From an uncultured Gemmatimonadales bacterium (lineage in GTDB: Bacteria; Gemmatimonadota; Gemmatimonadetes; Gemmatimonadales; Gemmatimonadaceae), in the NCBI GenBank assembly GCA_963851265.1, contig CAWKNZ010000006.1, forward strand, positions 64,001-128,000: DNA of 64,000 nucleotides, written 5' to 3'. Position numbers and translations under genes: made by a program. Of the stretch, positions 4,528 to 64,000 are shown one piece after another. The notes beneath the pieces were generated by a model that saw only the letters and a list, made by a program, of their open reading frames with translations, was not told the origin of the DNA and did no database searches. How positions within the stretch are numbered: position 1 is the first letter of the stretch; each line of letters opens with the position of its first letter.

Positions 4528-4656
4528 GCGCGCAAGTTCGGCCCACGACGTCGGCCAGGGAAGTCCAAGCCGGCGCGCGGAGCGCGCGCGGGGCGGCGGC
4601 GGGAGCGTGGATCGCGGGCGATCGCGCGGCGCGTGATGCCTAACGCGGCGCCGCGG

Positions 4657-6288
4657 TCACCGTCCCGCGATCCGGAGCGCCGGGGCCGGAGACCCGGCCG
4701 GCGCGCGTCGCGCCGGGCCCCGCGCCGTGTTCTCGAGGATGAGGACGGTCGGCGCATCGGGCCGGCGCCAGCCGGCCGACAGGCCGCGGCGGTCGCCCTG
4801 CCCGTCCATCGCCGCGAACGACCCGAGCACGAGGTCGTCGCGGCCGTCGCCGTTCACGTCGCCGACGTCCATCGTCAGCCAGCGCCCGCGGTTGGCGTCC
4901 GCGAACGTCCACGCCCGGAACTTCATTCCGCCGAGATTCTCCAGGTAGACGAACGAGAGCGGCGCGGCCGCGGTGTAGTCCGGGTAGAACGAGATCGCCG
5001 CGATGTCGACGCGCCCCGTGCCGCTGAAATCGCGCGCGACCGCCTTGTACGCGCCCGGCATCGGGAAGAAGTACCGCTCGGCGAAGCGGCCCCGGCCGTC
5101 GTTCGCGTAGACGTGGATGCCGTGGTACGGCTTCGCGGGACTCGGGTAGTCGCCGTTGTCGCCGTTGGTGTAGATGATGTCCGGGTGGCCGTCCCCGTTC
5201 ACGTCGCCGAGCGACATGCTCGTGGAGCCGTACGAGGGCGGGAAGCGGAGCAGCCACTCGCGGACGAAGCTGCCGTCGGGCCGGTTGTGGAACACCGATA
5301 TGCCCTCGTCCGCCTGCGCGTTGAGCGCGAGGATGTCGGGGCGCCCGTCGCCGTCGACGTCCTGGACGACGGTGTTCATCGCGCCCGGCTCGGCGTTCAG
5401 CACGTGGCGCCGGCTCCCGCCGCCGCGCAGCCGCTCGTACCACGCGAGGCGCCCGGTCAGGTTGCCGAACTCGCTCACCACCGCGTCCTCGACCCCGTCG
5501 CCGTTCAGGTCGGCGTACGACGCGAACACCGGCCGCTGCAGGGTGTCGACCTCCCACGCGATGTTCGGCCCACCGCCGGCCCCCCACGACGAGATGAGCG
5601 CGAGGGCGCCGCGCGGCACGTCCGACGGGTTGAGCTTGCCCATGAACACGAGCCCGAGCGTGTCGCCCGACACGTGCAGGTTGGACACCGGCGAGGGAAT
5701 CGGGTGCGTCGCGACCGCGTGGCCGCGCTGGTCCAGCACGGCGAGCACACTATGCCCGGGGTTCGCGTCGCCGACGTAGGTCCGGCCGTGCGCCGCGTCC
5801 ACCTGCACCAGCGTCACCATCGGGTTCGCGATGTGGAAGTCCGGCACGCGCACGCGGAACCCGGGCAGCCCGACGGTGACGGCCGGCGTGGCCGCCGCGG
5901 GCAGCACGGCGGGCGCGTTGCGCACGTAGTACGCGGCGAGCCGGTCCCACTCCGCGCGCGTCAGTAGCGCCGAGTCGGAGAAGACGTGCGCCGCGCGGAC
6001 GATCTGCCCCCCCACGCCCCCCTCGAGCACCTCGAGATTCTCGGGCTTGCCGACCCCCCGAAGTCCGAGCCGCCGCGCCATCCGCGGCAGCACGTACTGG
6101 TTCCAACTCGCCGTGTCGAGCAGGTCGGGCGTGGGGAGGATGTGACAGCCCTGGCAGTACTGCGTTGCGAGCTGCTCGCCCGAGCGAGTGGCGCGCGCCG
6201 CCGGCGCGTCGGGCCGGGCGCAGGCGAACGCCGCGAGCGCGACGAGGGTCGCGCCGAACGCGCGGACGAGATGTGTGCTGCGATACAC
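4657..6288 (-). CDS. FG-GAP/VCBS repeat lipoprotein with N-terminal cytochrome c motif
   Basis: Lipoprotein-like signal (AAFAC), CQGCH heme-attachment motif, repeated DxNGDG/DxDGDG loops. Confidence 0.8.
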   Translation of the reverse strand: MYRSTHLVRAFGATLVALAAFACARPDAPAARATRSGEQLATQYCQGCHILPTPDLLDTASWNQYVLPRMARRLGLRGVGKPENLEVLEGGVGGQIVRAAHVFSDSALLTRAEWDRLAAYYVRNAPAVLPAAATPAVTVGLPGFRVRVPDFHIANPMVTLVQVDAAHGRTYVGDANPGHSVLAVLDQRGHAVATHPIPSPVSNLHVSGDTLGLVFMGKLNPSDVPRGALALISSWGAGGGPNIAWEVDTLQRPVFASYADLNGDGVEDAVVSEFGNLTGRLAWYERLRGGGSRRHVLNAEPGAMNTVVQDVDGDGRPDILALNAQADEGISVFHNRPDGSFVREWLLRFPPSYGSTSMSLGDVNGDGHPDIIYTNGDNGDYPSPAKPYHGIHVYANDGRGRFAERYFFPMPGAYKAVARDFSGTGRVDIAAISFYPDYTAAAPLSFVYLENLGGMKFRAWTFADANRGRWLTMDVGDVNGDGRDDLVLGSFAAMDGQGDRRGLSAGWRRPDAPTVLILENTARGPARRAPAGSPAPALRIAGR

Positions 6289-6408
6289 CGATCGGAGATT
6301 CTGGGGAGGGTCGCCGCCGCGCGACGCGCGGCTACCGTCGAGGCCGGCCGCCGGAGCGTACGATAGAGCGCGGCGCGCACGCGCGCGAGCGGCCGGCGCC
6401 GCCGGCGT

Positions 6409-7314
6409 CTAACGCGTCGGCGGCGCCGCGTCGGGCGCGAGCAGCGCCTCGAACGCGACGGCGGGCACTCCGGGACGCCGCCCTTCGAGCCGCAGCCGCG
6501 TGAGCGGCCGCCGGATCACCAGCCCGGCCACGCGCACCGCGCCCACCCGCCCGAGCACGAGCTGGTCGGCCGCGGCCGCGCGCGACACGACCGCGAGGCC
6601 GAGCCCGGCGGCCACTGCCTCCTTCACGCCTTCCGTACTCCCCAGGGTGAGCGTGACGCGCGGCCGCACGCCGTGCGCGGCGAGTGCGGCCTCCGCCACG
6701 ACGCGCGTGCCGGAGCCGCGCTCGCGCGCGATGAACGCGTACTCGCCTAACGCCGCGGGCGCGACGGGCCGCGACGCCCCGAGCAGTGCGTGCCCCGGCG
6801 GCGCGAGCACCACCAACTCGTCCTCGCGCCACGCGTCCGCGAGCACCCGCGCGTCGGCCACGGGCCCCTCGACGAGCGCCACGTCGAGCCGGCGCTGCAG
6901 CAGCAGGCGCGCGATGGCGCGCGTGTTGGCGCTGGCTACCCGCACGGTGACGCCGGGGTGCGCGGCCCGGAACGCGCCGAGCAGCGGGGCGAGGTAGTAG
7001 GTCGCGACGGTGGTGCTCGCTCCCAGCCGGAGCACGCCCGCGTCGAGCCCGCGGCGCGCCCGGACCTCCTCCTCGGCCGTGCGTTCGACGGCGAACAGCT
7101 CGCGCGCACGCTGATACAGGGCCGCGCCGGCTTCGGTGAGGCGCACGCCACCTGCGCCGCGCTCGAGCAGCGGCAGTCCGACGTCGCGTTCGAGGCCGAG
7201 CACCGCCTTCGACACGGCGGGCTGGCTGAGCCGGAGCGCCGTCGCCGCGCGCGAGAAGCCGCCGCACTCGGCGACCGCCGCGAACGCGCGGAGTGCGTGC
7301 AGGTTGAGCGCCAT
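6409..7314 (-). CDS. LysR-family regulator (CysL/YeiE-like)
   Basis: FSRAA...LSQPAVS HTH and RERGSGTR motif; divergent from a YeiH-family transporter. Confidence 0.9.
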   Translation of the reverse strand: MALNLHALRAFAAVAECGGFSRAATALRLSQPAVSKAVLGLERDVGLPLLERGAGGVRLTEAGAALYQRARELFAVERTAEEEVRARRGLDAGVLRLGASTTVATYYLAPLLGAFRAAHPGVTVRVASANTRAIARLLLQRRLDVALVEGPVADARVLADAWREDELVVLAPPGHALLGASRPVAPAALGEYAFIARERGSGTRVVAEAALAAHGVRPRVTLTLGSTEGVKEAVAAGLGLAVVSRAAAADQLVLGRVGAVRVAGLVIRRPLTRLRLEGRRPGVPAVAFEALLAPDAAPPTR

Positions 7315-7382
7315 GCCCGAAAGTAATGGTGCTATGAAAAGAATGTCTTGGACTTATGGTGGTACGGGGCGCACCGTTCGGC
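7315..7382. promoter_or_regulatory. Divergent lysR/yeiH promoter region, probable LysR operator
   Basis: Short AT-rich gap between the divergent starts; exact operator not resolved. Confidence 0.5.
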
Positions 7383-8462
7383 ATGGCCCAACCCCTCGCT
7401 GCCCCGCACCCCGCTCCGATCGGCTCGCGCATCGCCGCGCTCCTGCCCGGCGGCGGGCTGACCGCGATCGTCGGCCTGGTGTCGTGGGGCGTCGCGCTCG
7501 CCGAGGAGCGCGCGTTCGGCCACCCGATCGTCGAGGCGCTGGTGGTCGCGATCCTGCTCGGGATGGTCGTGCGCACGCTCTGGACGCCGCCGCGCGCACT
7601 CGAGGCGGGGGTGCGCTTCGCCGCCAAGGAGGTGCTCGAACTGGCCGTCCTGCTCCTCGGCGTCTCGGTCGACCTTCCGCTGCTGCTGCGTGCGGGGCCC
7701 GCACTCGCGGCCGGCATCGTGCTGCTCGTCGTGCTCGGGATCACCTGCAGCTACGGCCTCGGGCGCGCGCTCGGCCTCGCTCCGAAGCTGGCCGTCCTGG
7801 TCGCGTGCGGGAACTCGATCTGCGGCAACTCGGCCATCGCCGCCGTCGCCCCCGTCATCGACGCCGAGCCGGAGCACGTCGCCTCGGCGATCGCGTTCAC
7901 CGCGATCCTCGGCGTCGCGGTCGTCCTCGGCCTGCCGCTGCTCGTCCGTCCGTTAGGCCTGAGCTTCTACCAGTACGGCGTGCTCGCCGGGCTCACCGTA
8001 TATGCGGTGCCGCAGGTGCTCGCCGCGGCGTTCCCGGTGAGCGTGCTGAGCGGCCAGGTGGGGACGCTCGTCAAGCTCGTGCGCGTGCTGATGCTCGGCC
8101 CCGTGGTCGTGTTCTTCGCGCTCCGCTACCAGCGCGCCGCGCGCGCGGGGGCCGGCGCGGGCGTGCCCGGCGGCGCGCCGCGCCCGCGCATCTCGGTGAC
8201 GCGGTTCGTGCCGTGGTTCATCGTCGGGTTCCTCGCGCTCGCCGGGCTGCGGTCGGCCGGCGTGCTGCCGCCGGCGGTGGCGACACCCGCGCGCACGCTC
8301 TCCGCCTGGCTCACGATCGCGGCGATGGCCGGACTCGGCCTCGGGGTGGACCTCAAGGTGATCGCGCGCGTGGGGCGGCCGGTGATCGCGACCGTCACCG
8401 GCTCGCTCGTGCTGCTGATCGTGCTCGGCGTGACGCTCATCCGCACACTCGGAATTCGCTGA
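7383..8462 (+). CDS. YeiH/UPF0324 putative sulfate exporter family membrane protein
   Basis: GNSICGNSAIAA motif, many TM helices, KLVRV and PWFI motifs. Confidence 0.88.
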   Translation: MAQPLAAPHPAPIGSRIAALLPGGGLTAIVGLVSWGVALAEERAFGHPIVEALVVAILLGMVVRTLWTPPRALEAGVRFAAKEVLELAVLLLGVSVDLPLLLRAGPALAAGIVLLVVLGITCSYGLGRALGLAPKLAVLVACGNSICGNSAIAAVAPVIDAEPEHVASAIAFTAILGVAVVLGLPLLVRPLGLSFYQYGVLAGLTVYAVPQVLAAAFPVSVLSGQVGTLVKLVRVLMLGPVVVFFALRYQRAARAGAGAGVPGGAPRPRISVTRFVPWFIVGFLALAGLRSAGVLPPAVATPARTLSAWLTIAAMAGLGLGVDLKVIARVGRPVIATVTGSLVLLIVLGVTLIRTLGIR

Positions 8463-11549: not shown

Positions 11550-11659
11550 GCGGCCCGCGTTAGGCGGCTCTCGTTAGGCCGCGCGCGTCAGGCAGTCCTC
11601 GACCGCCGCCTTCCGTCCCCGATCGGCCGCGGGACGGTCACCCCATCACCCGCCTGATC

Positions 11660-14161
11660 ATGCGCCTCACGCCCCGCCGCCCGGCAGCCGCGCGCCTCTC
11701 GCGCGCCCTCGCCCTGGGCGCCGCGGCCGTCACGCTCGCCGTCGCGCCCGGCGCGCGCGCGCAGGCGCCGCGCGGGTTCGGGGGCGCGCCGCGCGCGCGC
11801 TGGATCGCCCCCCCGGGCGTGCCGCCGGACAGCTTCGTCGTCTTCCACGCCCGGCGCACGCTCGACCTGCCGGAGCGGCCGGCGCACTTCGTCGTCCACG
11901 TGTCGGCCGACAACCGCTACCGCCTGTACGTCAACGGCGTGGACGTGGCCACGGGGCCGCAGCGGTCCGACGTGGCACACTGGCGCTACGAGACGGTGGA
12001 CCTCGCGCCGCGCCTGCGTGCCGGCCGAAACGTGATCGCCGCCGTGGTGTGGAGCCTCGGATACGCCCGCCCCGTGGCCCAGTTCAGCCACCGCGCCGGC
12101 TTCGTGCTGCAGGGGGACGGTCCCATCGAGGCCGCGCTGGTGAACACCGGACCCGGGTGGCGCCTGCTGCGCGACTCGGCGTACGCGCCGCTCGTGGTCA
12201 CGAGTGCGATGCTCCGCGGGTACTACGCGGCCGTGCCGGGCGAGGCCGTGGACGGCGCTCGCTACCCGTGGGGGTGGGAGTCGCCCGGCTACGACGACGC
12301 CCGATGGGCGGTCGTCGGCCCCGCGTCGGCGCCGGCCGGCGGCATCGCGGCGCCGCTCGCCGCGTTCGACGTCCCGCCGGGCAGCGCCGTGGTGGGCACC
12401 CTCGCCCTGCGCGGCGACGCGGGCGCCGGCGGCGAGGTGATCGGCTGGCAGCTCGCCCCGCGCGAGCTGCCGCCGATGGACGAGGTGCCGGAGCGCTTCG
12501 CGGCCGTTAGGCGCACCACCGGGCTGCCGCCTGAAGCGCGCGCCGACGCGCCGCTCCGCGGCGCGGGCGACCTCGTCATCCCGCCGCGCGCGCGGGTCAC
12601 GGTGCTCCTCGACGAGGGCCGCACCACGAACGCCTACCCCGTCGTGACGGTGAGCGGCGGGGCCGGGAGCGTGATGGGGCTGACGTACGCCGAGGCGCTT
12701 GTGGACGCGCGCGGACAGAAGGGACACCGCGACAGCGTGTCCGGGCGCGCCGTACGCGGCGTGCGCGACGAGTTCCGCCCCGACGGCGGCGCGCGCCGCA
12801 CCTTCCGTCCCCTGTGGTGGCGCTCGTACCGCTACGCGGAGCTCGAGGTGCGCACGGGCGACGCCGCGCTCGTCGTGCACGACGTACACGGCGTGTTCAC
12901 GGGCTACCCGCTGCGCGAGCGCGCTCGCTTCGCCGGCGACCTGCCGTGGCTGGCCGACGTCTGGCGCATGAACTGGAACGGCGTGCGGCTCGGGGCCTTC
13001 GAGACGTACATGGACACCCCCTACTGGGAGCAGCTGCAGTACGTGGGCGACACGCGGGTCCAGGCGCTCCTCTCGCTCTACCTGAGCGGCGACGACCGAC
13101 TCGTGCGGCAGGCGGTCGAGGCGTTCGATGCATCGCGTGCGCCCGACGGGCTGACCACCAGCCGGTACCCGTCGGTCATCCCGCAGCGGATCCCGCCGTT
13201 CTCGCTGATCTACGTGCTGATGGTGGACGACTACCTCCGGCACCGCGACGACCCGGCGTTCGTGCGCGCGCGCCTGGCCGGCGTGCGCGGGGTGCTCGAC
13301 TGGTACGCCGACCGCGTCGACACCACCGGGCTGCTCGGCCCGACGCCGCACTGGAACTACCTCGACTGGGCACGTGGATGGAACGCCGGCGTGCCGCCCG
13401 GCGCGGAAGACGGGCACTCCGTCCCGCTCACCCTGCTCTACGCCCACGCGCTGCGGCGCGCCGCGGCTGTGGAGGACGACGTCGGCATCCCGGGTGTGGC
13501 GGTGGCCTACCGCGCGCGCGCCGACGCGCTCGCGGCCGCGGCCCGCCGCCGCGCGTGGAACCCGGCGCGTGGGCTCTTCCGCGACGTGCCGGGCGGCGAG
13601 CGCGGGGACACGTCGTACAGCCAGCACGCCAACGCGCTCGCCGTGCTCGCCGGCGCGGTACCGGCGGCGGAGCGGCGGGCCGTGATGGGGCGCGTGCTCG
13701 ACGACACGACGCTCGTTCAGGCCACGTACTACTTCGGCTTCTACGTGTTCGAGGCGATGCGTGAGGCGGGGCTCGGCGACCGCTACGTCGAGCGCCTCGG
13801 GCCCTGGCGCGCGATGTTGGCGCGAGGCCTGACGTCCACCCCGGAGACCCCCGATCCGACGCGCTCCGATACGCACGCCTGGGCGGCGCACCCCAACTAC
13901 GGCCTGCTCGCCACGGTGCTGGGCGTTCGGCCGGCGAGTGCCGGATTCCGCACCGTCCGCATCGCGCCCGCGCTCGGCCCGCTGCGTCATGCCGAGGGTG
14001 TCGTGCCGCACCCACGCGGCGAGATCGTGGCGCGGCTGGACCGCGCGGGCGCGCGCGGACTGCACGCCGAGGTCACGCTTCCGCCCGGGGTCGCGGGAAC
14101 ACTAGAGTGGGACGGCCGACGCGTCCCCCTGCGCGCGGGTCGTCAGGTGGTCACGATGTGA
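11660..14161 (+). CDS. Secreted alpha-L-rhamnosidase, GH78-like
   Basis: SADNRYRLYVNG, MDTPYWEQLQYVGD, RSDTHAWAAHP; signal peptide. Confidence 0.85.
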   Translation: MRLTPRRPAAARLSRALALGAAAVTLAVAPGARAQAPRGFGGAPRARWIAPPGVPPDSFVVFHARRTLDLPERPAHFVVHVSADNRYRLYVNGVDVATGPQRSDVAHWRYETVDLAPRLRAGRNVIAAVVWSLGYARPVAQFSHRAGFVLQGDGPIEAALVNTGPGWRLLRDSAYAPLVVTSAMLRGYYAAVPGEAVDGARYPWGWESPGYDDARWAVVGPASAPAGGIAAPLAAFDVPPGSAVVGTLALRGDAGAGGEVIGWQLAPRELPPMDEVPERFAAVRRTTGLPPEARADAPLRGAGDLVIPPRARVTVLLDEGRTTNAYPVVTVSGGAGSVMGLTYAEALVDARGQKGHRDSVSGRAVRGVRDEFRPDGGARRTFRPLWWRSYRYAELEVRTGDAALVVHDVHGVFTGYPLRERARFAGDLPWLADVWRMNWNGVRLGAFETYMDTPYWEQLQYVGDTRVQALLSLYLSGDDRLVRQAVEAFDASRAPDGLTTSRYPSVIPQRIPPFSLIYVLMVDDYLRHRDDPAFVRARLAGVRGVLDWYADRVDTTGLLGPTPHWNYLDWARGWNAGVPPGAEDGHSVPLTLLYAHALRRAAAVEDDVGIPGVAVAYRARADALAAAARRRAWNPARGLFRDVPGGERGDTSYSQHANALAVLAGAVPAAERRAVMGRVLDDTTLVQATYYFGFYVFEAMREAGLGDRYVERLGPWRAMLARGLTSTPETPDPTRSDTHAWAAHPNYGLLATVLGVRPASAGFRTVRIAPALGPLRHAEGVVPHPRGEIVARLDRAGARGLHAEVTLPPGVAGTLEWDGRRVPLRAGRQVVTM

Positions 14162-14272
14162 CGTGTGGCAGCGTGAGGGCGCCGTCGTCATTCCTCCCCA
14201 CCGTCGCCCCGGTTCTTCGCCGCGCTTCGCCGCAATCCAGCCCGTGCCGCGGGCCCGTACGGCGGGCTCGCG

Positions 14273-15232
14273 TCAGAATCCGGAGCGCATCGTGAAGACG
14301 AACGGCTGTCGCACCGTGACGCCGACGGGATGTTCGGCGAGCTGCGCGGGGACGAAGTGGAGCCGCGGCAACACCGTTCGCACCGCGTCGGTGAAGAGCG
14401 TGTTCGTGCTCTCGACCACCTGAAGTGTGGCGAGGTCGACGACCCCCGTGCTGTCGATGCGGAATTCCACGATGACGCGCCCGCCGACGTGCGCGTGCGC
14501 GAGCGCCGTCGGGTAGCGCGGCGGCGGGTTGCCGACGATCGGGATCGGCAGGTCGTGCAGGTGCACGTCGGAACTGACGAGCGTCAGCGAACCGCCCGTG
14601 CGCGCGAGCACGTCGGACATCAGCCCCGACGTCGGCATCGGCACGAAGTCCTCCGGGCGCGTGACGCGCCGCGCGAGGTCGGGTGCGGCCGACACGACGC
14701 CGGCCACGAGCAGCGTCGCCGCCGGATCGGGCAGCAGCAGCTCGCGCAGTGCCGCCGTGCGCAGGTGCAGCGACGTCGCCGTCCGACGCACGCCCGCCTG
14801 GCGCAGCGCGCGGGAGGGCAGCGGGTCGGCCGTCTCGTCGATGGCCTTGGCGACGTCGCGCAGCCCGTTCGCCCCACTTCCCCGCGCGCGCGGCCCGATG
14901 GCGGCGCGCCCAGCGGGCCCGCGCTCCACGACCGGCAACCCTGTCGCGGGCGCGTCGGCGCGCCCGGGGACCACGTAGGCGAGCGGCGGGGGCGCACTCG
15001 GCCGGCGCGCGGATCGTACCACCCCCGTGCCCGAGCGGACGCCCACCCAGTGCAGGCGTTCGGTGCTCCCTGCCCCGAGTCCCCCAGCAGCCCGCCCGGG
15101 CATGTTGGTCCGCTCGGACCCACCACTGCCCACGGCGACGGCGAACAGGGCGGCGTGCGCCGTCAGACTGAGGCACGTGCCGGCGAAGGGCACGGGCTGC
15201 GGGCGCTGTGGCGCCAGAACGCGCATGATCAT
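14273..15232 (-). CDS. TonB-family protein (N-terminal anchor, TonB_C domain)
   Basis: SLTAH anchor helix; C-terminal PRYP..GRVIVEFRIDSTGVV..FVPA..V.QPFVF. Confidence 0.75.
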   Translation of the reverse strand: MIMRVLAPQRPQPVPFAGTCLSLTAHAALFAVAVGSGGSERTNMPGRAAGGLGAGSTERLHWVGVRSGTGVVRSARRPSAPPPLAYVVPGRADAPATGLPVVERGPAGRAAIGPRARGSGANGLRDVAKAIDETADPLPSRALRQAGVRRTATSLHLRTAALRELLLPDPAATLLVAGVVSAAPDLARRVTRPEDFVPMPTSGLMSDVLARTGGSLTLVSSDVHLHDLPIPIVGNPPPRYPTALAHAHVGGRVIVEFRIDSTGVVDLATLQVVESTNTLFTDAVRTVLPRLHFVPAQLAEHPVGVTVRQPFVFTMRSGF

Positions 15233-15270
15233 TGAGACTTCGCTCCAAAGCCGTTCCGAATTCCACGGAA

Positions 15271-15301
15271 GACACCTGACATATGACATGCGACGCGCGA
15301 C
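15271..15301. repeat. Five GAC-N4 heptads at exact 7-bp period
   Basis: GAC at 15271, 15278, 15285, 15292 and 15299, in an AT-richer patch upstream of the TonB gene. Confidence 0.45.
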
Positions 15302-15655
15302 CGCGCCAGCCCTGCCCCGTCGCCCGCGCCAACAACGCGACCAACGCGTGACGCCCGCTGCACGCTCGATGGGGGCCTGAGGCGGCGGCATCGTACGCCG
15401 CGCGCCCAACGTCCTCGCGGCTTCCTCGCGCGGCCACCGTTTCTACATTCCCCCCACCTCGTGGGCCCCACTCCCTCTCCTGTCCGAGCCAGCCATGTTC
15501 GCGATTTCGTGGCGCGTGGCCGTGTGCGCAGCCATGCCCGTGCTCCAAGCTCCTCATCCCGCTCGGGAGGGCCGACGAGTGGCAGCCCGACTCGCGGATG
15601 GCGCGCTCGGTCCGGACGCGCGAGGGCGTCGAACCGGCGTGGCATCGAGGCGCCC

Positions 15656-16591
15656 GTGACTCAGCGTCGGCCGACGCGCGCCGGCGCGCGGACGGCACCT
15701 GCGGCGGACGAGACGGCTGGTGCGGCTCCGGCCGGACCGCGTCTCGACGGCCGGCGCGCGCACGTGCTCGACCGCGCGGCGGAGTACGTGCGGCTCTCCG
15801 ACCAGGGTCTGACCGCGGCACAGATCGCACGGCGGCGGCGCAAGTCGCCCGCGCACGTCTCGATCCTGCTGCGCCTCGGACGCGCCCTCGTCGCGGTGCC
15901 CGAGGCGGAACGCGAGGCGCTCCGGTCGCCGCGCGTGACGTGGCGGTTGGTGCAACGCCTCGTCCGCATCGACGTCGACTCGGCGAGTCTGCGCAAGCAG
16001 TTGCGCGACGCGGTCGGCGGATTCAGCACGCACAACGTCGACGGTCGCCGCCGCCGGGCGCGGCGGACCGCGGGCGACGCGCCGCCCGCCACCACCGCTC
16101 CCGGCGTGGCCTGGGGATGGGACGCGACGTGGTTCGCCAACGACCCGACCGGCTACGCGGCGGCGCACCTGGCGCACCTGGCGCACGTGCACGCGGTGGT
16201 GGCCGGTCGCGCCGCCGACGCCGTGCGCCTGGCCGGCGGGACCGCCGCCGCGATCGACGCGGGCCAGAGCCTCCGCGGCCTGCAGCGGCGTCTGCGCCAG
16301 GCGACCGGACCGTCGGCGGGCGCGCCGAGCGCGGCCGAGCGGCAGGCGCTCGCGACGTTCGCGATCCTCGGACGCGCGCTGCGCGACGCCGAGTCGGCCG
16401 TCGCGGCGCTCGCTCCGACGGACGCCGTCCCGGCGGCGGGGGAGCCGGCGATTTCGCCCCCCGGCGACCCGAGCAACCCGTCCGCGGGCGACGCGTCGGG
16501 AGCCGAGCTGGCCCGCGCCGAGCTGGCCCGAGCCGAGCTGGCCCGAGCCGAGCTGGCGGCGGACCTCGCCGCCGATCTGGACGAGTCGTGA
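15656..16591 (+). CDS. ParB-like HTH protein lacking the N-terminal CTPase domain
   Basis: GTG start with GAGG upstream. GLTAAQIARRRRKSPAHVSILLRLG aligns by eye with the HTH of the adjacent ParB. Confidence 0.6.
   Translation: MTQRRPTRAGARTAPAADETAGAAPAGPRLDGRRAHVLDRAAEYVRLSDQGLTAAQIARRRRKSPAHVSILLRLGRALVAVPEAEREALRSPRVTWRLVQRLVRIDVDSASLRKQLRDAVGGFSTHNVDGRRRRARRTAGDAPPATTAPGVAWGWDATWFANDPTGYAAAHLAHLAHVHAVVAGRAADAVRLAGGTAAAIDAGQSLRGLQRRLRQATGPSAGAPSAAERQALATFAILGRALRDAESAVAALAPTDAVPAAGEPAISPPGDPSNPSAGDASGAELARAELARAELARAELAADLAADLDES
16502..16557 (+). repeat. 15-bp tandem repeat (AELAR, about 3.7 copies)
   Basis: GCCGAGCTGGCCCG(C/A) units at the 3' end of the ORF. Confidence 0.85.
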
Positions 16592-16666
16592 CCCTAGCGG
16601 GCGCGCCGTCGCCGGTCCGGCGCCCGCCCGCATGCGCAGACGGCCCCTGCCCCGCCCCGCGCGCGA

Positions 16667-17863
16667 TCAGCGTCGCGCGGTCCGCTCGAGGGCGCGGCGT
16701 GCGCGCGTGACCGCGTCGCGCTCGGCGCCTGTCCGTCCGTCCGTTTCGAGCCGGCGGAGCGCCTCGACCAGCCGCTCACGCTCGTGCTGGATGGCGCGCA
16801 CGAACCCGTCGACCACCGCGGCCGGGTCGGCACGCAGGTCCTGTTCGACCCAGCGCATGCGGAACGTGCGCCCGTTGCGGATCGCGCGTCCGTAGAACGG
16901 GGCCTGTTCGTCGGCGCGCGTGCGCGGGACCGGGGCGCGCGCCGGGCCGGCGCCGGTCCCGGACTCGTCGCGCGCACCGTTCACTGAGGCGTCGGCGTGC
17001 ACCGGGGCACGGGCCGCGCCGTCCGTCTCGCGCGTTTCAGCGCCCACCCCACTCGCGGCGGTGGCGAGCGCCTCTCGCAGGGCGGCCGTGCGCGCGGGCA
17101 CGTCGGGGAGCGCGCCTATGGTCTGGCACTGGCGCACCTGGAGTGCGCCGCGCCGCGCGAGGCGCGCCTGCTCGTCGGGGGCGAGGGCGTCGAACGCCTC
17201 GCCGACCTTCACCATGTAGCTGACATAGCCCTTGTCGCGGTGCAGCCGGCGTCCGATCTCGGAGATCGAGTCGCCGAACCCGTGCATGCGCCAGAGCGCG
17301 TGCGCGGTTTCGGCCGGGGTCATGTCCTCGCGGTTGAGGTTCTCCTCCACCTGGCGGGCGACGGCCTGTCGGTCGTCGAGGTCGCCGAGGTCGCGCACCG
17401 GGACCGTGGGAAGCGCGGCGCGCAGTGCGGCGCGCAGCCGGCCCTTGCCCGCGACGAGCACGAACTCGCGCTGCCCCGTGGGCCCGTGGCTGCGCACCCA
17501 GATCGGCGTGTCGATCTCGCCGCGCGCGCGCACGGCGGCGACGAGGCGTTCGAACTCCTCGCCCTGCTCGTCCCACTCGCGGATGTACGGGCCGCGCTCG
17601 ACGACGCGCCGCGGGTCGAGGTCGAACACGTCGCGGCGCGTGCGGCGGTCGCCTCGCTCGGCGGTGGCCGGGTGCTGCGCGAGTTGGCCGCCCGGAACAC
17701 GTCCGCCCTCCCCGCTGCCCTGCCCAGCCGCGCGGTCGCGCGCGGCGGGCGTCTCCGACGGCTCGCCCGCACGGGCGCCCTCGGGCGGACCCGGGCGCCG
17801 GAAGATCAACGCGCCGACCTCGGCGATGTCGGCGCTCCGCTCGCGCCGTCCCGCCTTAGCCAC
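16667..17863 (-). CDS. parB: ParB/RepB/Spo0J partition protein
   Basis: GEIDTPIWVR, LVAGKGRLRAA, EENLNREDM, then an HTH; overlaps the parA stop. Confidence 0.88.
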   Translation of the reverse strand: MAKAGRRERSADIAEVGALIFRRPGPPEGARAGEPSETPAARDRAAGQGSGEGGRVPGGQLAQHPATAERGDRRTRRDVFDLDPRRVVERGPYIREWDEQGEEFERLVAAVRARGEIDTPIWVRSHGPTGQREFVLVAGKGRLRAALRAALPTVPVRDLGDLDDRQAVARQVEENLNREDMTPAETAHALWRMHGFGDSISEIGRRLHRDKGYVSYMVKVGEAFDALAPDEQARLARRGALQVRQCQTIGALPDVPARTAALREALATAASGVGAETRETDGAARAPVHADASVNGARDESGTGAGPARAPVPRTRADEQAPFYGRAIRNGRTFRMRWVEQDLRADPAAVVDGFVRAIQHERERLVEALRRLETDGRTGAERDAVTRARRALERTARR

Positions 17864-18866: not shown

Positions 18867-18898
18867 CAGCGCGGGGGAGGGGCGAGAGGGGAACGGCC

Positions 18899-18923
18899 GG
18901 GCCGTTGTGCGGCACAACGGCCC
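18899..18923. promoter_or_regulatory. Palindrome GGGCCGTTGTGC-G-GCACAACGGCCC, candidate parS/operator
   Basis: Perfect 12-bp arms between the rep stop and the parA start. Confidence 0.68.
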
Positions 18924-18989
18924 CGCGCACGGCGGGTCGGCGGGAATCGCGCGGCGGCGCGGGTCGCGGGAACCGCGGGGATCGGGACG

Positions 18990-21053: not shown

Positions 21054-21097
21054 GAAGCGCGGTGGGGGGAGGGAGCCGGCGGGGAGCCGGGGTGGGC

Positions 21098-21126
21098 AGT
21101 ATGGAACAGCGTGCGGTCGCGGACAA
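21098..21126 (-). promoter_or_regulatory. Sigma70-like promoter of rep
   Basis: Minus strand reads TTGTCC-N17-CATACT. Confidence 0.55.
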
Positions 21127-21199
21127 GCCGGGTGCAACCGTCGCGCCCGCAGCACCTAGCGTCGGCCCGGCGTTGCGCGGGGTGAGCAGAGCGCGCACC

Positions 21200-21800: not shown

Positions 21801-21886
21801 GCCGAGCCGGTGACGTGCACGCACGGCGCGCACGTCCGGCCATCGGCGCGCTTCGGTGCGTTGGTGGCACGAGGCGGCCGCGCGGG

Positions 21887-22846: not shown

Positions 22847-22859
22847 CCCGTACGCGTCC

Positions 22860-23714: not shown

Positions 23715-23772
23715 GCGCGCGCGTAATGCTGTTCGGACGCTCCGTGTCCGCCACCCCCGTCGACCCTCCCGC

Positions 23773-25767: not shown

Positions 25768-25914
25768 CGGCGCGGTAGCGGCGCGGCTGCCGTGGTGCGG
25801 TCGGGGTCCTGCCCGTCGGCGACGATTCACATGGCACGAGAGTCGCTTTTCTCCGACACGTCGCCGGTCGGGCGCACGCCCGACCGGACTGGACCTCTAC
25901 CGGAGACGAACACC

Positions 25915-26151: not shown

Positions 26152-26179
26152 CCTGAGATCTGCGCGGGCGGCGGGCGGG

Positions 26180-50379: not shown

Positions 50380-50399
50380 CCGCCGCGCGCCGGCCGCGC

Positions 50400-54917: not shown

Positions 54918-54930
54918 CCACCGCACGCGC

Positions 54931-57258: not shown

Positions 57259-57260
57259 CC

Positions 57261-57731: not shown

Positions 57732-59515
57732 CCAGGTCCGACGCGTCACGCACCGTGCTCGTCGTCGACGACTCGCCGGAGGACGCCGAGATCGTCCGCC
57801 GCCATCTCCGTCGGGCCACCGATCGCGCGTACGTCGTCCGGCACGTGCAACTCGCCGCGGACGCGCTCGCCGCCATCCGTGACACCGCCACCCGGCCGGA
57901 CGTCGTCCTGCTCGACCACAGCCTGCCCGACATGACGGGGCTCGAGCTGCTCGACCTGCTCGCGGGCGAACCGGGGGGTACGCCGGTACCGGTCGTCATG
58001 CTCACGGGCACCCACGCCCAGGTCGACACCGCCGTGTCGGCCATGCAGCGTGGGGCGCTCGACTACCTGGCGAAGGACGCGCTCAACGCCGACGCGCTGC
58101 GGCGCGCGATCGACGGCGCGCTCGACCGCTTTGCGAGTTCCCGCCTCGTGGCGTCGCAGCGCGACGAACTCGAGCGCCGCCACCGCGCGCTCGACGCGGC
58201 CACGGCGCGCACCTCGCGCCTGCTCGCCATCGTCACCGCCCTCGGCGGTGCCCTCACGCCCGACGACGTCGCACAGACGATCCTCGACGAGGTGATGCCG
58301 GCCGTGGGTGCCATGATGGGGATGATGGTCCTCGTCCGCGCCCCTGCCGACCCCGCAGGGGACGGCGAACGCGCGTCGTCGCCGACGCTGGAACTCGTGC
58401 GGAGCGTGGGCCTGCCCGCTGACGCGCGGGACCTCTGGCGCCGCATCGCGCGCGACGCCGACCTGCCGCTGACACACGCCGTCCGGACCGGCGAGCCCGT
58501 CTGGGTGGCTTCGGTCGCCGACGCCGTCCCGGGCTCCGACGCGGTCGCCGGCCTCCGCGCGGCGGTCGGCTACCGTGCCGCGGCCGTGCTGCCGCTCCTC
58601 GTCGAGGACCGGGCCGTGGGCGCGGTCGCGCTCGGCTTCCCCGAGGTGCGCGCGTTCGGCGCACAGGAGCAGGCGTTCCTGCTCACCGTCGCGCGGCAGT
58701 GCGCGCAGGCGCTGGAGCGCGCGCGCCTCTACGCGGCCGAACACGCCGCGCGCGCGGAAGCAGAGGCCGCACGCGCCGACGCCGAGCGCGCCAACCGCGC
58801 CAAGGCGCAGTTCCTCGCCGCGATGAGCCACGAGCTGCGCACACCGCTCAACGCGATCGCCGGCTACGCGGAGCTCATGGAGATGGGCATCCGCGGCCCG
58901 GTCACGGCCGAGCAGCGCGAGGACCTCGCGCGGGTGCGGCGCGCGGGGCAACACCTCCAGTCGCTCATCAACGACATCCTCAACCACGCCCGACTCGAAG
59001 CCGGCACCGTGCGCTACGACCTGCAGACCGTGCTGCTCGACGAGGTCGTCGCAGACGTCGAGGCGCTCGTGTCACCGCAGCTCCGCGCGCGAGCCCTCAC
59101 CTTCTCGCACGACGGCTGCGCCACCGACACGCCCGAACGCCCGCACGCCGTGCGCGCCGACGGCGAGAAGGTCCGGCAGGTGCTGCTCAACCTGATGACC
59201 AACGCGATCAAGTTCACCGCGCCCGGCGGCCGCATCGAACTCGCGTGCGCGATCGATCGCGGGGCGGACGGGCGCCCGACGGTCGTCCGCCTGCGGGTGA
59301 GCGACACCGGGCGCGGCATCGCGTCGGGCGCGCTCACCCAGATCTTCGAGCCCTTCGTGCAGGTGGACCGACACCGCACGCACGAGAGTCAGCAGGGCGT
59401 GGGGCTCGGCCTCGCCATCAGCCGCGACCTGGCGCGCGGCATGGGCGGCGACCTCACGGCCGAGAGCACGCCCGGCGTGGGGTCCGCGTTCACGCTCACC
59501 CTGCCCTCCGCCTAA
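57728..59515 (+). CDS. Hybrid kinase REC-GAF-HisKA-HATPase
   Basis: GTGA overlap; VVDD, LLDHSLPD, DYLAK, a GAF region, MSHELRTPLNAI. Confidence 0.88.
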   Translation: MTRSDASRTVLVVDDSPEDAEIVRRHLRRATDRAYVVRHVQLAADALAAIRDTATRPDVVLLDHSLPDMTGLELLDLLAGEPGGTPVPVVMLTGTHAQVDTAVSAMQRGALDYLAKDALNADALRRAIDGALDRFASSRLVASQRDELERRHRALDAATARTSRLLAIVTALGGALTPDDVAQTILDEVMPAVGAMMGMMVLVRAPADPAGDGERASSPTLELVRSVGLPADARDLWRRIARDADLPLTHAVRTGEPVWVASVADAVPGSDAVAGLRAAVGYRAAAVLPLLVEDRAVGAVALGFPEVRAFGAQEQAFLLTVARQCAQALERARLYAAEHAARAEAEAARADAERANRAKAQFLAAMSHELRTPLNAIAGYAELMEMGIRGPVTAEQREDLARVRRAGQHLQSLINDILNHARLEAGTVRYDLQTVLLDEVVADVEALVSPQLRARALTFSHDGCATDTPERPHAVRADGEKVRQVLLNLMTNAIKFTAPGGRIELACAIDRGADGRPTVVRLRVSDTGRGIASGALTQIFEPFVQVDRHRTHESQQGVGLGLAISRDLARGMGGDLTAESTPGVGSAFTLTLPSA

Positions 59516-59542
59516 CGATCGGCGGCGTCGGGCCGGGCCGCG

Positions 59543-59797: not shown

Positions 59798-59927
59798 GCG
59801 GACTTCCGGGTTCGAGGATGGCGGCGCGCCGGACGTCCGCGCGCACGCCGGCAAAGCGTGCCCGGACCGCGTTCGTTCCCGACCGCCGCCCGCCCCGGGC
59901 GTGCGCGCCGCCGCCCCGCGCCGGACG

Positions 59928-62192
59928 TTAGGCGGTCGGGCGCGGGGCGGCGAGGAGCTCCGCGAACGCGGCGGCCGGGAGCGGACGCGCGAAGTGGTAT
60001 CCCTGTCCGTACCCGCAGCCGAGCGCGCGGAGCACGTCGGCCTGCGCGGCGCGCTCGACCCCCTCGGCCACCACGCGGAGCCCGAGCGCCGCGCCGAGCG
60101 CGACGATCGCGCGCGTGAGCACCGGGTCGTGCCCGTCGGTCGCGACCCCGTCCACGAAGCTCTTGTCGATCTTGAGCACGTCCACCGGGAAACGCTGCAG
60201 GTAGCTGAGCGAACTGTACCCCGTCCCGAAGTCGTCGACCGCGAGCGTGACGCCCAGCGTCTTCAGCTCGGTGAGGCGCGCGACCGCCGCGTCCGTGTCG
60301 GCGAGCATCGCGGTCTCGGTGATCTCGAGCGTGAGCGCGCCGGCCGGGAGCCCCGCCGCCGCGAGCGCGTCGCGCACCTCGGCGACGATGGACGCGTGGT
60401 GAATCTGCAGCGCGGCGAGGTTGACGCTCACCGACGGCCGCCGCCCGCCGGCCGCCGACTGCCACCGTGCCGCCTCGCGACACGCTTCCTCCAGCACCCA
60501 GCGCCCGATCGAGACGACGAGCCCCGTCTGTTCGGCCACCGGAATGAACTCGATGGGCGGGATCATCCCGCGCACGGGGTGCTGCCAGCGGACGAGTGCT
60601 TCCGCCCCGACGACGTGCCCCGTGTCGAGGTCGACGAGCGGCTGATAGTGCAGCACCAGCTCGCCGCGTTCGGCCGCGCCGCGCAGATCGTTCTCGAGCG
60701 CGCGGCGTTCCTGCGCGCGGTGGTGCATCGCCGGCACGAACAGCTCGTGGCGCCCCTTGCCACCGTGTTTGGCGGCGTACATCGCCACGTCGGCGAAGCG
60801 CAGCAGGTCCTCCGCTGCGAGGTTCGCGTTGGCGTCCTCGGGCGAGGCACCGCCGGCCGCGGCGGCGTCGGAGCCGAGTGCGATCCCGATGCTCGCGACC
60901 GGGCGCAGCTCGGCGCCCTGCACGCACACCGGGGCCGCGAGCGTCGAGGCGACGCGCTCGGCGGCGACCACGGCCTCGCCCGCGTCGTGCACGCCGCGCA
61001 GCAGGATCGCGAACTCGTCGCCGCCGAGGCGCGCGACGGTGTCGGAGCCGCGCGTGGCCCGGAGCAGGCGACTCGCGACTTCGATCAGGAGGACGTCGCC
61101 GGCCGCGTGCCCCAGCGCATCGTTCACCCCCTTGAAGTCGTCGAGGTCGACGTAGAGCACCGCCAGCGACGCCCGGCCGCCCGGGTCGGCCGCGGCGCGC
61201 GCGAGTCGCTCGCGGAAGCGCGTCCGGTTCGGCAGCCCCGTGAGGGCGTCGTGCCGCGCGTCGTGGACGAGTTGCTCCTCCGCCCGCTTGCGGTCCGAGA
61301 TGTCGGTCTGCGACCCCGCCATGCGGACGACCGCGCCCAACGCATCGACGACGCGGACACCGCGCAGGTGCACCCAGCGGTACGCGCCGTCGCGGTGCGC
61401 GATCCGGTACTCGAGTTCGAAGAGGCTGTCCGGCGCCGCTTGCGGCAGCAGCAGCTCGGCGCGTACGCCGGCGGCGTCTTCCGGGTGGATGCGCGCGAGC
61501 CACTCCGACGGCGTCGCGCCGACCTCGTGCTCGGCGTAGCCGATGATGTCCTTCCAGCGCGGCGAGAAGTAGACCGTGTTGGCCGACACGTTCCAGTCCC
61601 ACAGCCCGTCGTGCGCGCCGCGCGCGGTGAGCGCATACCGCGCCTCGCTCGCGGCGAGGTTCCCGGCGACCGTCCGTTCGCGTCGCGCCGTCATGTAGAA
61701 CACGAGCAGGACGGTGCTCAGGTTGCTGATGAAGAGCGCGGGGCTCAGTCGCGGGGCCGGAATCACGGCCGCGACCGCGACGACGCCCGCGACGGTGGCG
61801 ATCCCGTACGCCGCCAGCACGCGCGGGTCCTGGATCACCGCGCCGATCAGCGCGGCGATCATCATCAGCCCGATGTCGTACTCGCCGGCGAACGCGTTGA
61901 GCCGCAGCAGGTTGATCACCCAGACCGTGATCAGGATCAGGACCGCGTACAGCGCGCGACGGAAGCGGCGCCGGTTGGGAAGCTGCCCGAGCGCGACGAG
62001 CATCAGGCAGGCGCCGACGATGCACCACCGGTGCAGCCACGGGTCCACGGCGTTCGGCATGACGCGCGCGTAGACGAACCGGAACGCCACCACCGCGAGG
62101 GCGGCGAGCGCCGCGTAGCGCTGGAGCACCCGCACGTCGTCGGCGGCGGCGTCCGGCGTCGAGGCGCGTTTCGAGACCACGGCCGTCCTCAT
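59928..62192 (-). CDS. Membrane-anchored PAS-GGDEF-EAL protein
   Basis: About five TM helices, GLWDW..IHPED PAS, intact GGDEF, EAL and DDFGTGYSS motifs. Confidence 0.92.
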   Translation of the reverse strand: MRTAVVSKRASTPDAAADDVRVLQRYAALAALAVVAFRFVYARVMPNAVDPWLHRWCIVGACLMLVALGQLPNRRRFRRALYAVLILITVWVINLLRLNAFAGEYDIGLMMIAALIGAVIQDPRVLAAYGIATVAGVVAVAAVIPAPRLSPALFISNLSTVLLVFYMTARRERTVAGNLAASEARYALTARGAHDGLWDWNVSANTVYFSPRWKDIIGYAEHEVGATPSEWLARIHPEDAAGVRAELLLPQAAPDSLFELEYRIAHRDGAYRWVHLRGVRVVDALGAVVRMAGSQTDISDRKRAEEQLVHDARHDALTGLPNRTRFRERLARAAADPGGRASLAVLYVDLDDFKGVNDALGHAAGDVLLIEVASRLLRATRGSDTVARLGGDEFAILLRGVHDAGEAVVAAERVASTLAAPVCVQGAELRPVASIGIALGSDAAAAGGASPEDANANLAAEDLLRFADVAMYAAKHGGKGRHELFVPAMHHRAQERRALENDLRGAAERGELVLHYQPLVDLDTGHVVGAEALVRWQHPVRGMIPPIEFIPVAEQTGLVVSIGRWVLEEACREAARWQSAAGGRRPSVSVNLAALQIHHASIVAEVRDALAAAGLPAGALTLEITETAMLADTDAAVARLTELKTLGVTLAVDDFGTGYSSLSYLQRFPVDVLKIDKSFVDGVATDGHDPVLTRAIVALGAALGLRVVAEGVERAAQADVLRALGCGYGQGYHFARPLPAAAFAELLAAPRPTA

Positions 62193-62434
62193 GTGCGCGC
62201 CGTCCGGCTGCGCGCGGCCGCTCGCAGGCGAACGCACGTCGCGGCGGACCGCTCGGCGCGGCGCACCTCGCGGAACGACGTCACGGACAGCATGGCGAGG
62301 AGACGAGTGGACGGGAGGGGCGCGGGGATCGCGCGGGGGTAGTGCCGTGTGGACGATCGAATGACGTGAATGCCACACGCCCGCGCGCCTGGGCGCCCCC
62401 GCCGCGCGCCCAGCCGGCGCGCCGCTTGGGTGCG

Positions 62435-64000
62435 TTACGCCGGCGCGCCCGCCGTGGGGGCCTCCTCCGAACCCTCGCCCGCGGCCCGGCCGGCAGCAGC
62501 GTGCGACCCGGGCCCGGGCGTCCCCGTCGTCACCCCCCACCGCCAGTCGCGGATCTCGGGCATGTCCTCGCCGCGCTCGGTCACGTACGCGCGGTGTGCG
62601 GCGAGCCGGTCGTGGCAGTATGCGGCGAGCGCCTCGCCCTCGGGCGACGTCGCCAGGTCCGGCACCCGCGCGATTACGTCGAGCGTGAGGTGAAAGCGGT
62701 CGATGTCGTTCAGCACGGTCATGTCGAACGGCGTGGTCGTCGTGCCCTCCTCCTTGTAGCCGCGGACGTGCAGGTTGGCGTGGTTGGTGCGCCGGTACGC
62801 GAGCCGGTGGATGAGGTACGGGTAGCCGTGGAACGCGAAGACGACGGGCCGGTCGGTCGTGAACAGCGCGTCGAACACCTCGTCCGTGACTCCGTGCGGG
62901 TGCTCCGTGTGTGGCTGCAGCGTCATCAGGTCGACGACGTTGACGACGCGCGTGCGGAGCCGCGGCAACCGCTCGCGGAGGAGCTGCGCGCAGGCGAGCA
63001 TCTCGAGCGTCGGCACGTCGCCGGCGCACGCGAGCACGACGTCGGGGTCGAGGTCTCCCGTCGTCCCGGCCCACTCCCACGACCCCAGCCCGGCGCGGCA
63101 GTGCTCGACCGCGGCGTCCATCGCGAGCCACTGCGGCGCGGGCTGCTTGCCCGCGACCACCACGTTGACGTAGCTGCGGCTCCGCAGGCAGTGGTCGGCC
63201 ACCGAGAGGAGCGTGTTCGCGTCGGGCGGCAGGTAGATGCGCACCACGTCGGCCTTCTTGTTCGCGATGTGGTCCAGAAAGCCCGGGTCCTGGTGGCTGA
63301 ACCCGTTGTGGTCCTGCCGCCAGACGTGCGACGTGAGCAGGTAGGTGAGCGACGGGACGGGCGCGCGCCACGGAATCCCGCGCGTCGTCTTGAGCCACTT
63401 GGCGTGCTGGTTGACCATCGAGTCGACGATGTGCACGAACGCCTCGTAGCACGAGAACAGGCCGTGGCGCCCGGTGAGCAGGTAGCCTTCGAGCCAGCCC
63501 TGGCACAGGTGCTCGCTCAGCACCTCCAGCACGCGACCGCCGTGGCCGACGTGCTCGTCGGTCGGCAGCGACGCGGCCTCGAGCTCGCGCCCGGTCACCT
63601 CGAACACCGCGTCCAAACGGTTGGAACTCGTCTCGTCGGGGCCGAAGAGGCGGAACGTTTCGGGGTTGGCGCGCATCACGTCGCGCAGCCAGGTGCCTAA
63701 CACGCGCGTCGCCTCGCCGTCTCGCGCGCCCGGGGCCGGCACGTCCACTCCGTAGTCGCGGAAGTTCGGGAGCGCGAGGTCGCGCGTGAGCAGCCCGCCG
63801 TTGGCGTGCGGGTTCGCGCCCATCCGGCGCGTCCCCTCCGGCGCGAGCGCGGCCAGCTCGGGGACGAGCGCGCCGTTCGCGTCGAACAGCGTCTCGGGCC
63901 GGTAGCTCCGCATCCAAGCCTCGAGCTGCCGCAGGTGCTCGGGTTCGTGCGCGAGGTTCGCGAGCGGTACCTGGTGCGCCCGCCACGTGCCCTCGACCGG
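62435..64000 (-). CDS. xfp: Xylulose-5-phosphate/fructose-6-phosphate phosphoketolase, 5' part outside the window
   Basis: [61 protein letters not shown]. Confidence 0.95.

Follow-up and report, generated by a model that had tools for sequence, protein, structure and literature searches.

Self tags of the uptake type have, to our knowledge, been described in just two families of Proteobacteria, as the DNA uptake sequences (DUS) of the Neisseriaceae and the uptake signal sequences (USS) of the Pasteurellaceae. The DUS receptor in Neisseria is a ComP-type pilin, and the origin of uptake-type words is still argued. According to PMC1939737, counts of DUS and USS fall 82- to 92-fold from perfect to singly mismatched forms, and uptake sequences are evenly spaced, have 35–65% of their copies in open reading frames and are without bias in their orientation around the chromosome. 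Here we analyze the octamer YGTTAGGC, found in a 64-kb stretch of DNA from an uncultured Gemmatimonadales bacterium (hereafter, the window; G000:C6:64001-128000), throughout the genome to which the window belongs (G000; 4.60 Mb, 12 contigs, 72–74% G+C) and in related genomes. Like DUS and USS, it is one short asymmetric word present at about one copy per 1–3 kb and equally on both strands, and in G000 most copies lie inside genes where the protein allows, counts fall sharply from the perfect to the singly mismatched word, spacing is more even than chance and atypical DNA is depleted of copies. Unlike DUS and USS, it is known from sequence alone, is shorter (7–8 bp), belongs to a different phylum where it is abundant in 60 of 201 family genomes without dialects, forms few terminator-type inverted pairs and coincides with a recombinase site. 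We tentatively propose, as the likeliest of several explanations though one we would not yet call probable, that YGTTAGGC is a DUS/USS-like, strand-symmetric DNA self tag that works at the level of DNA segments and shares the spelling of the integron R box.

The word occurs 19 times in the window, as 16 copies of CGTTAGGC and 3 of TGTTAGGC (Table 1), against a mean of 1.04 (sd 1.02, maximum 4) in 100 dinucleotide-preserving shuffles, none of which reached 19. Our recount recovered every copy, the C/T split and the coordinates given in a preliminary description of the window, which had marked the G of GTTAGGC on the forward strand, so that our forward-strand starts are its numbers minus one base. 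By our own gene calls, 11 copies lie in the sense frame xxG-TTA-GGC, one reads GTT-AGG-C, three overlap stop codons and four are intergenic (4638, 11559, 11573 and 37152 in the earlier numbering). The single GTT-AGG reading (12506) and the three stop-codon copies (50398 as TAG, 59510 and 59927 as GCC-TAA-C) had been described in the same way.

Across G000, GTTAGGC was counted 1,762 times, CGTTAGGC 1,396 times and TGTTAGGC 243 times, with copies on all 12 contigs and a mean spacing of ~2.6 kb. The density of CGTTAGGC was 2.7–4.1 per 10 kb on each contig, and its strands were equal (708/688). The base preceding GTTAGGC was C in 79% of copies, T in 14% and G in only 4%, the base following it was G in 53% and A in 22%, and beyond these positions there was no conservation except the three-base rhythm of coding DNA. 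Because G, which is common at third codon positions, makes up only 4% at position −1, and because TGTTAGGC is itself 15 times above its codon-aware null, the Y assigned earlier to the first position is justified. Genes were called with our own codon-score caller (3,759 genes, 88% coverage; frame counts could err by several percent either way), and the codon-aware null consisted of 20 within-gene shuffles of synonymous codons that kept all TTA codons and are hence conservative. On the sense strand we saw 804 copies of CGTTAGGC where this null gave 20.4 (38-fold, the top z-score of all 8-mers), and on the antisense strand 231 where it gave 18; every other top 8-mer overlapped the word or stayed below ~3-fold. 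TTA codons, which the preliminary description called very rare at this GC apart from the word, numbered 1,293, of which 995 (77%) stood within G-TTA-GGC, so that they are far from equally common outside it; for comparison, ATA was used 287 times and AGA 253 times, and a tRNA-Leu with anticodon UAA is present. A codon or peptide artefact is ruled out by the synonymous shuffle together with the occupancy per possible site given below, and these two results also support the earlier view of a selected or driven DNA signal.

The pressure acts on DNA, not on the message or the sense strand. In G000 the word occurs in four coding frames, in two stop-codon readings and in spacers: GTTAGGC is read 995 times as xxG-TTA-GGC, 200 times as antisense xxG-CCT-AAC, 72 times as antisense xGC-CTA-ACx and 24 times as GTT-AGG-C, while GCC-TAA-C provides 114 of 439 TAA stops, xGT-TAG-GC provides 77 of 756 TAG stops, and 280 copies lie in spacers. 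Thus, 1,291 of the 1,762 copies are inside reading frames and 191 overlap stop codons. Occupancy, the filled share of places where synonymous codons alone could spell the word, was 9.1% for sense xxG-TTA-GGC (990/10,825), 13.7% for antisense xxG-CCT-AAC (196/1,432), 3.8% for the antisense CTA frame (72/1,886) and 0.7% for the GTT-AGG frame (24/3,422), and 124 of the 864 genes ending in Ala-stop read GCC-TAA-C. The suggestion that copies inside genes lie on the sense strand, drawn from the window, was not borne out genome-wide: 272 in-gene copies are antisense, and the sense-strand excess arises because x-Leu-Gly is common. A signal at the sense-strand or RNA level was rejected on the same grounds, as the antisense frame is filled at least as often and occupancy is flat along genes (0.072–0.120 by decile).

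One-letter variants of the word stand at 0.11–1.4x, with the exception of GTTGGGC (2.5x), a transition neighbor through TTG; the apparent depletion of TTA-bearing variants is partly an artefact of the shuffle, which spreads TTA codons around. The most discriminating result is that copies of the word repel one another at short range. In 300 simulations, the two main frames, with their 12,257 possible sites, were filled at random with the observed number of copies, matched for codon typicality. G000 has 2 gaps of ≤100 bp against 39.4 expected (sd 6), 10 of ≤200 bp against 74.8 (sd 8.6) and 80 of ≤500 bp against 170 (sd 12); short-gap counts this low appeared in none of the 300 simulations, and from 2 kb up there was no difference, long gaps not being in excess (27 vs 27.6) once possible sites and codon typicality were modelled. 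This repulsion argues against site-by-site mutational drive, which should leave copies independent, and it is the pattern to be expected of an advantage that accrues to a stretch of DNA and grows little when a second copy lies nearby. In a cruder exponential test of five other genomes rich in the word (at least 400 copies of CGTTAGGC; we class genomes with 80–399 as intermediate and those with fewer than 80 as poor), three showed the short-gap deficit (G012, G001 and, mildly, G051). The word is also depleted in atypical DNA, occupancy in G000 rising from 4.9% in the least to 13.1% in the most codon-typical quintile of genes.

Word sites are maintained between species. In 336 kb of the congeneric genome G001 aligned to G000 at 81.4% identity, 83 copies were shared, or 61% of 136 sites in G000 and 39% of 214 sites in G001, compared with control sharing of 34.6% for all 7-mers, 38% for the synonymous GCTCGGC and 14–17% for GCTGGGC. 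Copies without a counterpart mostly stood opposite GCTCGGC, GTTGGGC or GCTGGGC.

Under the self-tag proposal, the word would be kept at about one copy per 1–3 kb on every replicon by an advantage acting on DNA segments, not on single sites. A component of a DNA-uptake or transformation pathway would prefer word-bearing fragments, and homologous replacement by such fragments would drive the word into resident DNA where the protein sequence allows, mostly at synonymous Leu-Gly, Pro-Asn, Ala-stop and spacer positions. A competence channel (ComEC) and a PilQ-like secretin are available in nearly all of the genomes tested for them (counts below). We infer uptake as the process, and likewise what is said here of the reading protein and of the origin of the integron link. 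We rank this reading first, followed by an array of binding sites for an intracellular protein, integron landing pads, repair drive and, last, a Chi- or KOPS-like signal.

Repair drive would be autonomous at each site, with a methylase and a mismatch enzyme converting near-matches singly, in the manner of very-short-patch (VSP) repair or of the highly iterated palindrome 1 (HIP1) of cyanobacteria, whose abundance has been linked to methylases. YGTTAGGC resembles HIP1 as a hyper-abundant exact octamer written through coding DNA, and the very sharp and exact recognition would suit such a drive, as would a large MmeI/Eco57I-type methylase encoded by G000, of a kind that reads asymmetric words of 6–7 bp. 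HIP1, however, is a palindrome tied to methylases, whereas the word here is asymmetric and its copies are strongly non-independent at short range; moreover, reaching the word from a CTC or CTG codon needs two changes. Searches of G000 and of the rich, complete genome G042 found neither Vsr (PF03852) nor a C5 methylase (PF00145). An inverse link between Vsr/C5 methylase and richness, seen in the first five genomes (0 of 2 rich, 3 of 3 poor), shrank across the family to 10 of 60 rich vs 30 of 129 poor genomes for Vsr. A regular-expression screen of G000 yielded 34 methylase candidates, of which Pfam confirmed one DNA methylase, the MmeI/Eco57I-type protein (1,141 residues, C7:582086-585511; L109); homologues with ~50% identity were found in 194 of 201 family genomes regardless of load, in a search with a stricter first look. 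We therefore regard repair drive as very improbable. The conservation of the MmeI-like methylase is itself unusual for a restriction-type enzyme, and many of its matches have one in-frame TGA near the end.

Among the 201 genomes of the family of G000 (f1; the unpublished G011 and G038, both at baseline, are included), CGTTAGGC counts were bimodal, with a median of 33, a maximum of 7,821, and 129 poor, 12 intermediate and 60 rich genomes. Richness is mostly a trait of genera and is fast-changing: counts ranged from 1,100 to 7,821 in genus g58 and from 173 to 1,991 in g18, and in g45 one genome had 66 copies (G099) vs 3,244–4,141 in five others (G051, G133, G161, G184 and G205). Outside f1, in 162 genomes from eleven other families of the phylum (including the unpublished G250, G277 and G346, all at baseline), only genus g96 of family f2 was enriched (181–1,061 copies in all five genomes). 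Five rich genomes sampled from five genera had an identical extended word. In 60–100 kb from each of four poor genomes, no other hyper-abundant 7- or 8-mer was found under an order-2 Markov null, which recovers the word from 60–100 kb of G000; an order-4 null failed this positive control. The trait is present or absent, not dialectal.

The distribution also speaks against a polar signal for recombination or segregation, of the kind of Chi or the FtsK-orienting polar sequences (KOPS), since 129 family genomes are poor and the four sampled lacked a substitute. YGTTAGGC resembles Chi and KOPS as an over-represented, oriented octamer of similar density, the density of Chi in Escherichia coli being close to that of the word. 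With the majority gene strand in two strand-biased stretches of contig C2 as a proxy for replication direction, ~70% of copies there point with that strand, as a polar signal would. This bias follows the genes, however: majority-strand genes hold 149 sense and 45 antisense copies, minority-strand genes 18 sense and 10 antisense, and spacer copies split 9 vs 13. No replication polarity thus remains beyond gene orientation, and the strands are equal genome-wide, as they are in all 60 rich genomes (largest |z| 2.6). As for the known readers, RecC turned up in neither G000 nor G042, and an AddAB-like pair was present in G000 and the poor genome G176 and not found in G042 or G163, so that neither is linked with richness and both are missing from the rich G042. 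We give a Chi- or KOPS-like function almost no credence. Among the kinds of signal listed in the preliminary description, a tag resembling uptake sequences fits best; the Chi/KOPS-like kind is disfavored by the lack of polarity and the missing readers, and the HIP1/VSP-like kind by the missing Vsr and C5 methylase and the non-independence of copies.

The spelling of the word points in a further direction. The consensus of the integron core site (R box) is GTTRRRY, which GTTAGGC fits. Where genomes of the order are motif-poor, their few copies cluster on one strand at intervals of ~550 bp, and in two such genomes the clusters are cassette arrays (L018, L019), whose attC sites begin with GCCTAACA, continue through inner repeats and end in YCGTTAGGC; with attC ends spelled like the word, cassettes carry two copies each. 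The genomic word is thus identical in spelling to the attC/attI core. An attC site is an imperfect palindrome (R''-L''...L'-R') that folds as single-stranded DNA and lies in arrays beside intI, whereas at least 99% of the copies in G000 (~1,740) are lone, without partner box or hairpin, in ordinary genes. Judged by eye, attC-like pairs number about 8–10 in G000, and attC-like sites with the word at both ends lie on C10 and at C6:1591-1701. A run of such sites (GCCTAACG, 90–114 bp, CGTTAGGC) together with closely spaced copies of the word, also judged by eye, occupies G000:C10:186000-215000, which looks like a cassette array without a nearby integrase.

The sole integron integrase (IntI) of G000 is split, with residues 2–265 encoded at C6:5244-6044 and residues 260–313 at C6:3005-3166, on the same replicon as the window and ~58 kb upstream of it. 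The ~2.1 kb between the halves codes, on the opposite strand, for a large serine recombinase (Resolvase + Recombinase + Zn_ribbon_recom), and an Rfam scan of the intI region gave no match. The integrase does not maintain the copies today in G000. Across the family, IntI is present in 137 of 201 genomes, comprising 47 of 60 rich, 7 of 12 intermediate and 83 of 129 poor genomes; richness is therefore independent of IntI, which we rejected as the reader. With so exact a match in spelling, and so many integrons in the family, we do not call the match chance; from the shared spelling and the two copies per cassette, we read the tag as linked with cassette traffic. According to PMC12614218, chromosomal integrons acquire cassettes from single-stranded DNA brought in by natural transformation. 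A stronger form of the self-tag proposal, which we consider doubtful, is that YGTTAGGC truly tags DNA for uptake, as the first word to do so outside the Proteobacteria, and equals the R box because uptake specificity and cassette traffic are coupled. Every cassette would then carry two tags and every resident kilobase about one, cells would preferentially re-import both DNA of their own and the pool of cassettes shared within the order, and lineages gaining the specificity would then have written the integron core through their whole genomes.

If the copies were instead integron landing pads or by-products, that is, secondary cassette sites selected for gene capture or left by the integrase, a cassette inserted at G|TTAGGC would end up with the word restored at either side of it, as the anatomy of cassette ends suggests, and a promoterless cassette could land at the stop-codon (114 TAA and 77 TAG) and intergenic copies with the gene unbroken. 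Cassette integration at genomic attG sites is mentioned in PMC12614218. Most copies, however, lie in reading frames, where insertion would break the gene, attC-like pairs are few, and IntI is broken in G000 and does not track richness. We also know of no way in which an integrase could convert near-matches into the word, and we consider landing pads improbable.

More serious, though in our judgment still unlikely, is the alternative that the word acts in cis as the binding site of a protein inside the cell, such as an IntI/Xer-type tyrosine recombinase or a nucleoid-associated factor, which would need about one site per kilobase on every replicon for compaction, loading or marking, with selection within the cell keeping the sites. 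The exact identity with the R box and the wealth of integrons in the family speak for it, short-range repulsion and upkeep of sites would suit a spaced binding array, and the same word, never another, is the rich one in 60 genomes of f1 and in genus g96 of f2. The behavior of IntI described above speaks against it, both in its distribution over richness classes and in the splitting of the sole G000 copy by serine recombinase DNA, and loads that vary up to 7-fold within genera, and from 66 to several thousand in g45, are odd for a housekeeping array.

Depletion near replication and partition loci in G000 would also accord with such an array, as a bound protein could interfere with ParB or with initiation. 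The stretch from 12.5 to 27.7 kb of the window, reported earlier as empty and as spanning a rep/par region, indeed lacks the word and contains ParB-like, ParA-type and RepA-like genes (Table 1); at 15,171 bp between the copies at 12512 and 27677, it is the 11th longest of 1,750 gaps in the genome. The RepA-like candidate is a weak Pfam match just under the cut-off, with homologues on C9, C8 and C12. The presence of these genes marks C6 as a replicon of its own. In the window, the ParB-like, ParA and RepA-like genes follow one another (14273-25767), with a paralogous set (rep, parB, parA) on C8, which together with the rep homologues on C9 and C12 points to several secondary replicons in the genome.

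The longest gap in G000 (C1:182876-227962, 45 kb) contains mnmG, the chromosomal parA and parB, and mnmE, and ~11 copies would be expected there after matching for codon typicality. The third longest (C8:248137-269544, 21 kb) contains the rep/par genes of C8, and other long gaps hold dnaA (C1:2107-17073) and the rep gene of C9 (C9:116596-131158); the rep homologue of C12 is not spared from the word. Within 5 kb on either side of six preset replication/partition loci, there were 6 copies vs 23 expected (permutation P = 5 × 10−5). The second longest gap, over infC, rpmI, rplT, pheST and neighbors, probably reflects highly expressed genes avoiding rare codons. In two congeners, the pattern was weak at the chromosomal parB (gaps of 8.7 kb in G001 and 7.8 kb in G004); at the plasmid locus it held in G004, with a gap of 17.8 kb, and the gap was 3.7 kb in the other congener. 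In all four other rich genera examined (G042, G168, G012 and G051), the chromosomal parB was not depleted, density there being near normal. The rep/par gap is thus a real tendency in G000, partial in the two congeners, and not general; we rejected motif-free zones as a general origin mark, and their absence from the four genera also counts against an intracellular array.

Several observations weigh against a self tag recognized during uptake. Only 60 of the 201 family genomes are rich and the poor genomes sampled have no substitute word, whereas DUS dialects are known throughout the Neisseriaceae. The short-gap deficit was not seen in two of the five rich genomes given the exponential test (G042 and G168), and hairpin pairs in spacers are few (about 6–8 among 46 close pairs in G000). 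In the alignment of G000 with G001, the flanks of shared sites were no more alike than the flanks of control words (0.846 vs 0.84–0.855), so that nothing points to recent exchange between the two species around shared sites. The word is the site of a DNA recombinase, which invites the intracellular reading. Among the uptake genes tested, ComEC (present in five of five genomes) and a PilQ-like secretin (in 196 of 201, with scores below the cut-off of its family) are near universal, hence uninformative on richness, and do not separate rich from poor genomes. No reader was found among the candidates tested, none of which accounts for richness by being present or absent; the basis may lie in alleles, whether of a pilin, of ComEA or of the recognition part of the MmeI-like methylase. 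Competence is not on record for the group: in the part of the literature open to our search, none of the papers that pair Gemmatimonas with natural transformation deals with bacterial competence, judged by title and opening of the abstract, and no text links Gemmatimonad* with uptake sequences.

A sharp word resembling a self tag in a different and mostly uncultured soil phylum, with on/off contrasts between and within genera, shares its spelling with the site cut by integron integrases. Should uptake be what reads the word, natural transformation would be tied to the way gene cassettes spread; should the reader be an intracellular protein, the word would mark a genome-wide binding array of a new kind. 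Under either reading we expect that the reader can be found, and genera g45 and g96 offer the best natural contrasts for this. We found no printed description of the word, alone or with 'integron', in a search whose coverage left out most subscription journals. New here are the short-range repulsion, the upkeep between species, candidate readers that do not track richness, the lack of a substitute word in poor relatives and the recurrence of rep/par gaps within G000.

Table 1. Copies of YGTTAGGC in the 64-kb window, and the motif-free zone with its replication and partition genes
Feature	Position	Strand	Remarks
CGTTAGGC copy	4638..4645	-	intergenic, 12 nt beyond a gene end
CGTTAGGC copy	6745..6752	-	sense xxG-TTA-GGC, LysR-type regulator gene
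CGTTAGGC copy	7951..7958	+	sense xxG-TTA-GGC
CGTTAGGC copy	11558..11565	+	intergenic, first of direct pair 14 bp apart
CGTTAGGC copy	11572..11579	+	intergenic, second of direct pair 14 bp apart
CGTTAGGC copy	12505..12512	+	GTT-AGG-C (rare sense frame), last before motif-free zone
Motif-free zone around the replicon's partition and replication genes	12513..27676	.	15.2 kb
ParB-like gene inside motif-free zone	16667..17863	-	ParB_N, E 1.5e-6; homologue on C8
ParA-type ATPase gene inside motif-free zone	17856..18866	-	AAA_31 2e-30, CbiA
RepA-like replication initiator candidate in motif-free zone	18990..21053	-	RPA 6.1e-6, 26.4 bits, cut-off 27
CGTTAGGC copy	27677..27684	-	sense xxG-TTA-GGC, first after motif-free zone
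CGTTAGGC copy	29624..29631	-	sense xxG-TTA-GGC, sulfite/nitrite reductase gene
CGTTAGGC copy	31493..31500	+	sense xxG-TTA-GGC, sirohaem synthase gene
CGTTAGGC copy	33688..33695	-	sense xxG-TTA-GGC, BNR/sortilin-type protein gene
CGTTAGGC copy	37151..37158	+	intergenic
CGTTAGGC copy	40429..40436	+	sense xxG-TTA-GGC, second BNR/sortilin-type gene
CGTTAGGC copy	44449..44456	-	sense xxG-TTA-GGC, ornithine cyclodeaminase-family gene
TGTTAGGC copy	49447..49454	-	sense xxG-TTA-GGC, FecCD permease gene
TGTTAGGC copy	50005..50012	-	sense xxG-TTA-GGC, same FecCD gene, 558 bp from 49447 copy
CGTTAGGC copy	50398..50405	-	gives TAG stop codon, xGT-TAG-GC
CGTTAGGC copy	59510..59517	-	complement GCC-TAA-C is stop of + strand gene 57755-59515
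CGTTAGGC copy	59926..59933	+	complement GCC-TAA-C is stop of - strand gene 59928-62180
TGTTAGGC copy	63695..63702	-	sense xxG-TTA-GGC

Two further gene groups were seen in the window. A haem oxygenase gene followed by genes for a bacteriophytochrome histidine kinase, a response regulator and a hybrid GAF kinase (54243-59515) is a light-sensing two-component cluster. Paralogous genes for BNR/sortilin-Vps10-type repeat proteins of ~1,150 residues lie on opposite strands (32401-35907 and 39405-42806) and flank two small genes for PEP-CTERM proteins; orthologues of the BNR/sortilin-Vps10-type genes are present in G001, G003 and G004 at 82–88% identity.

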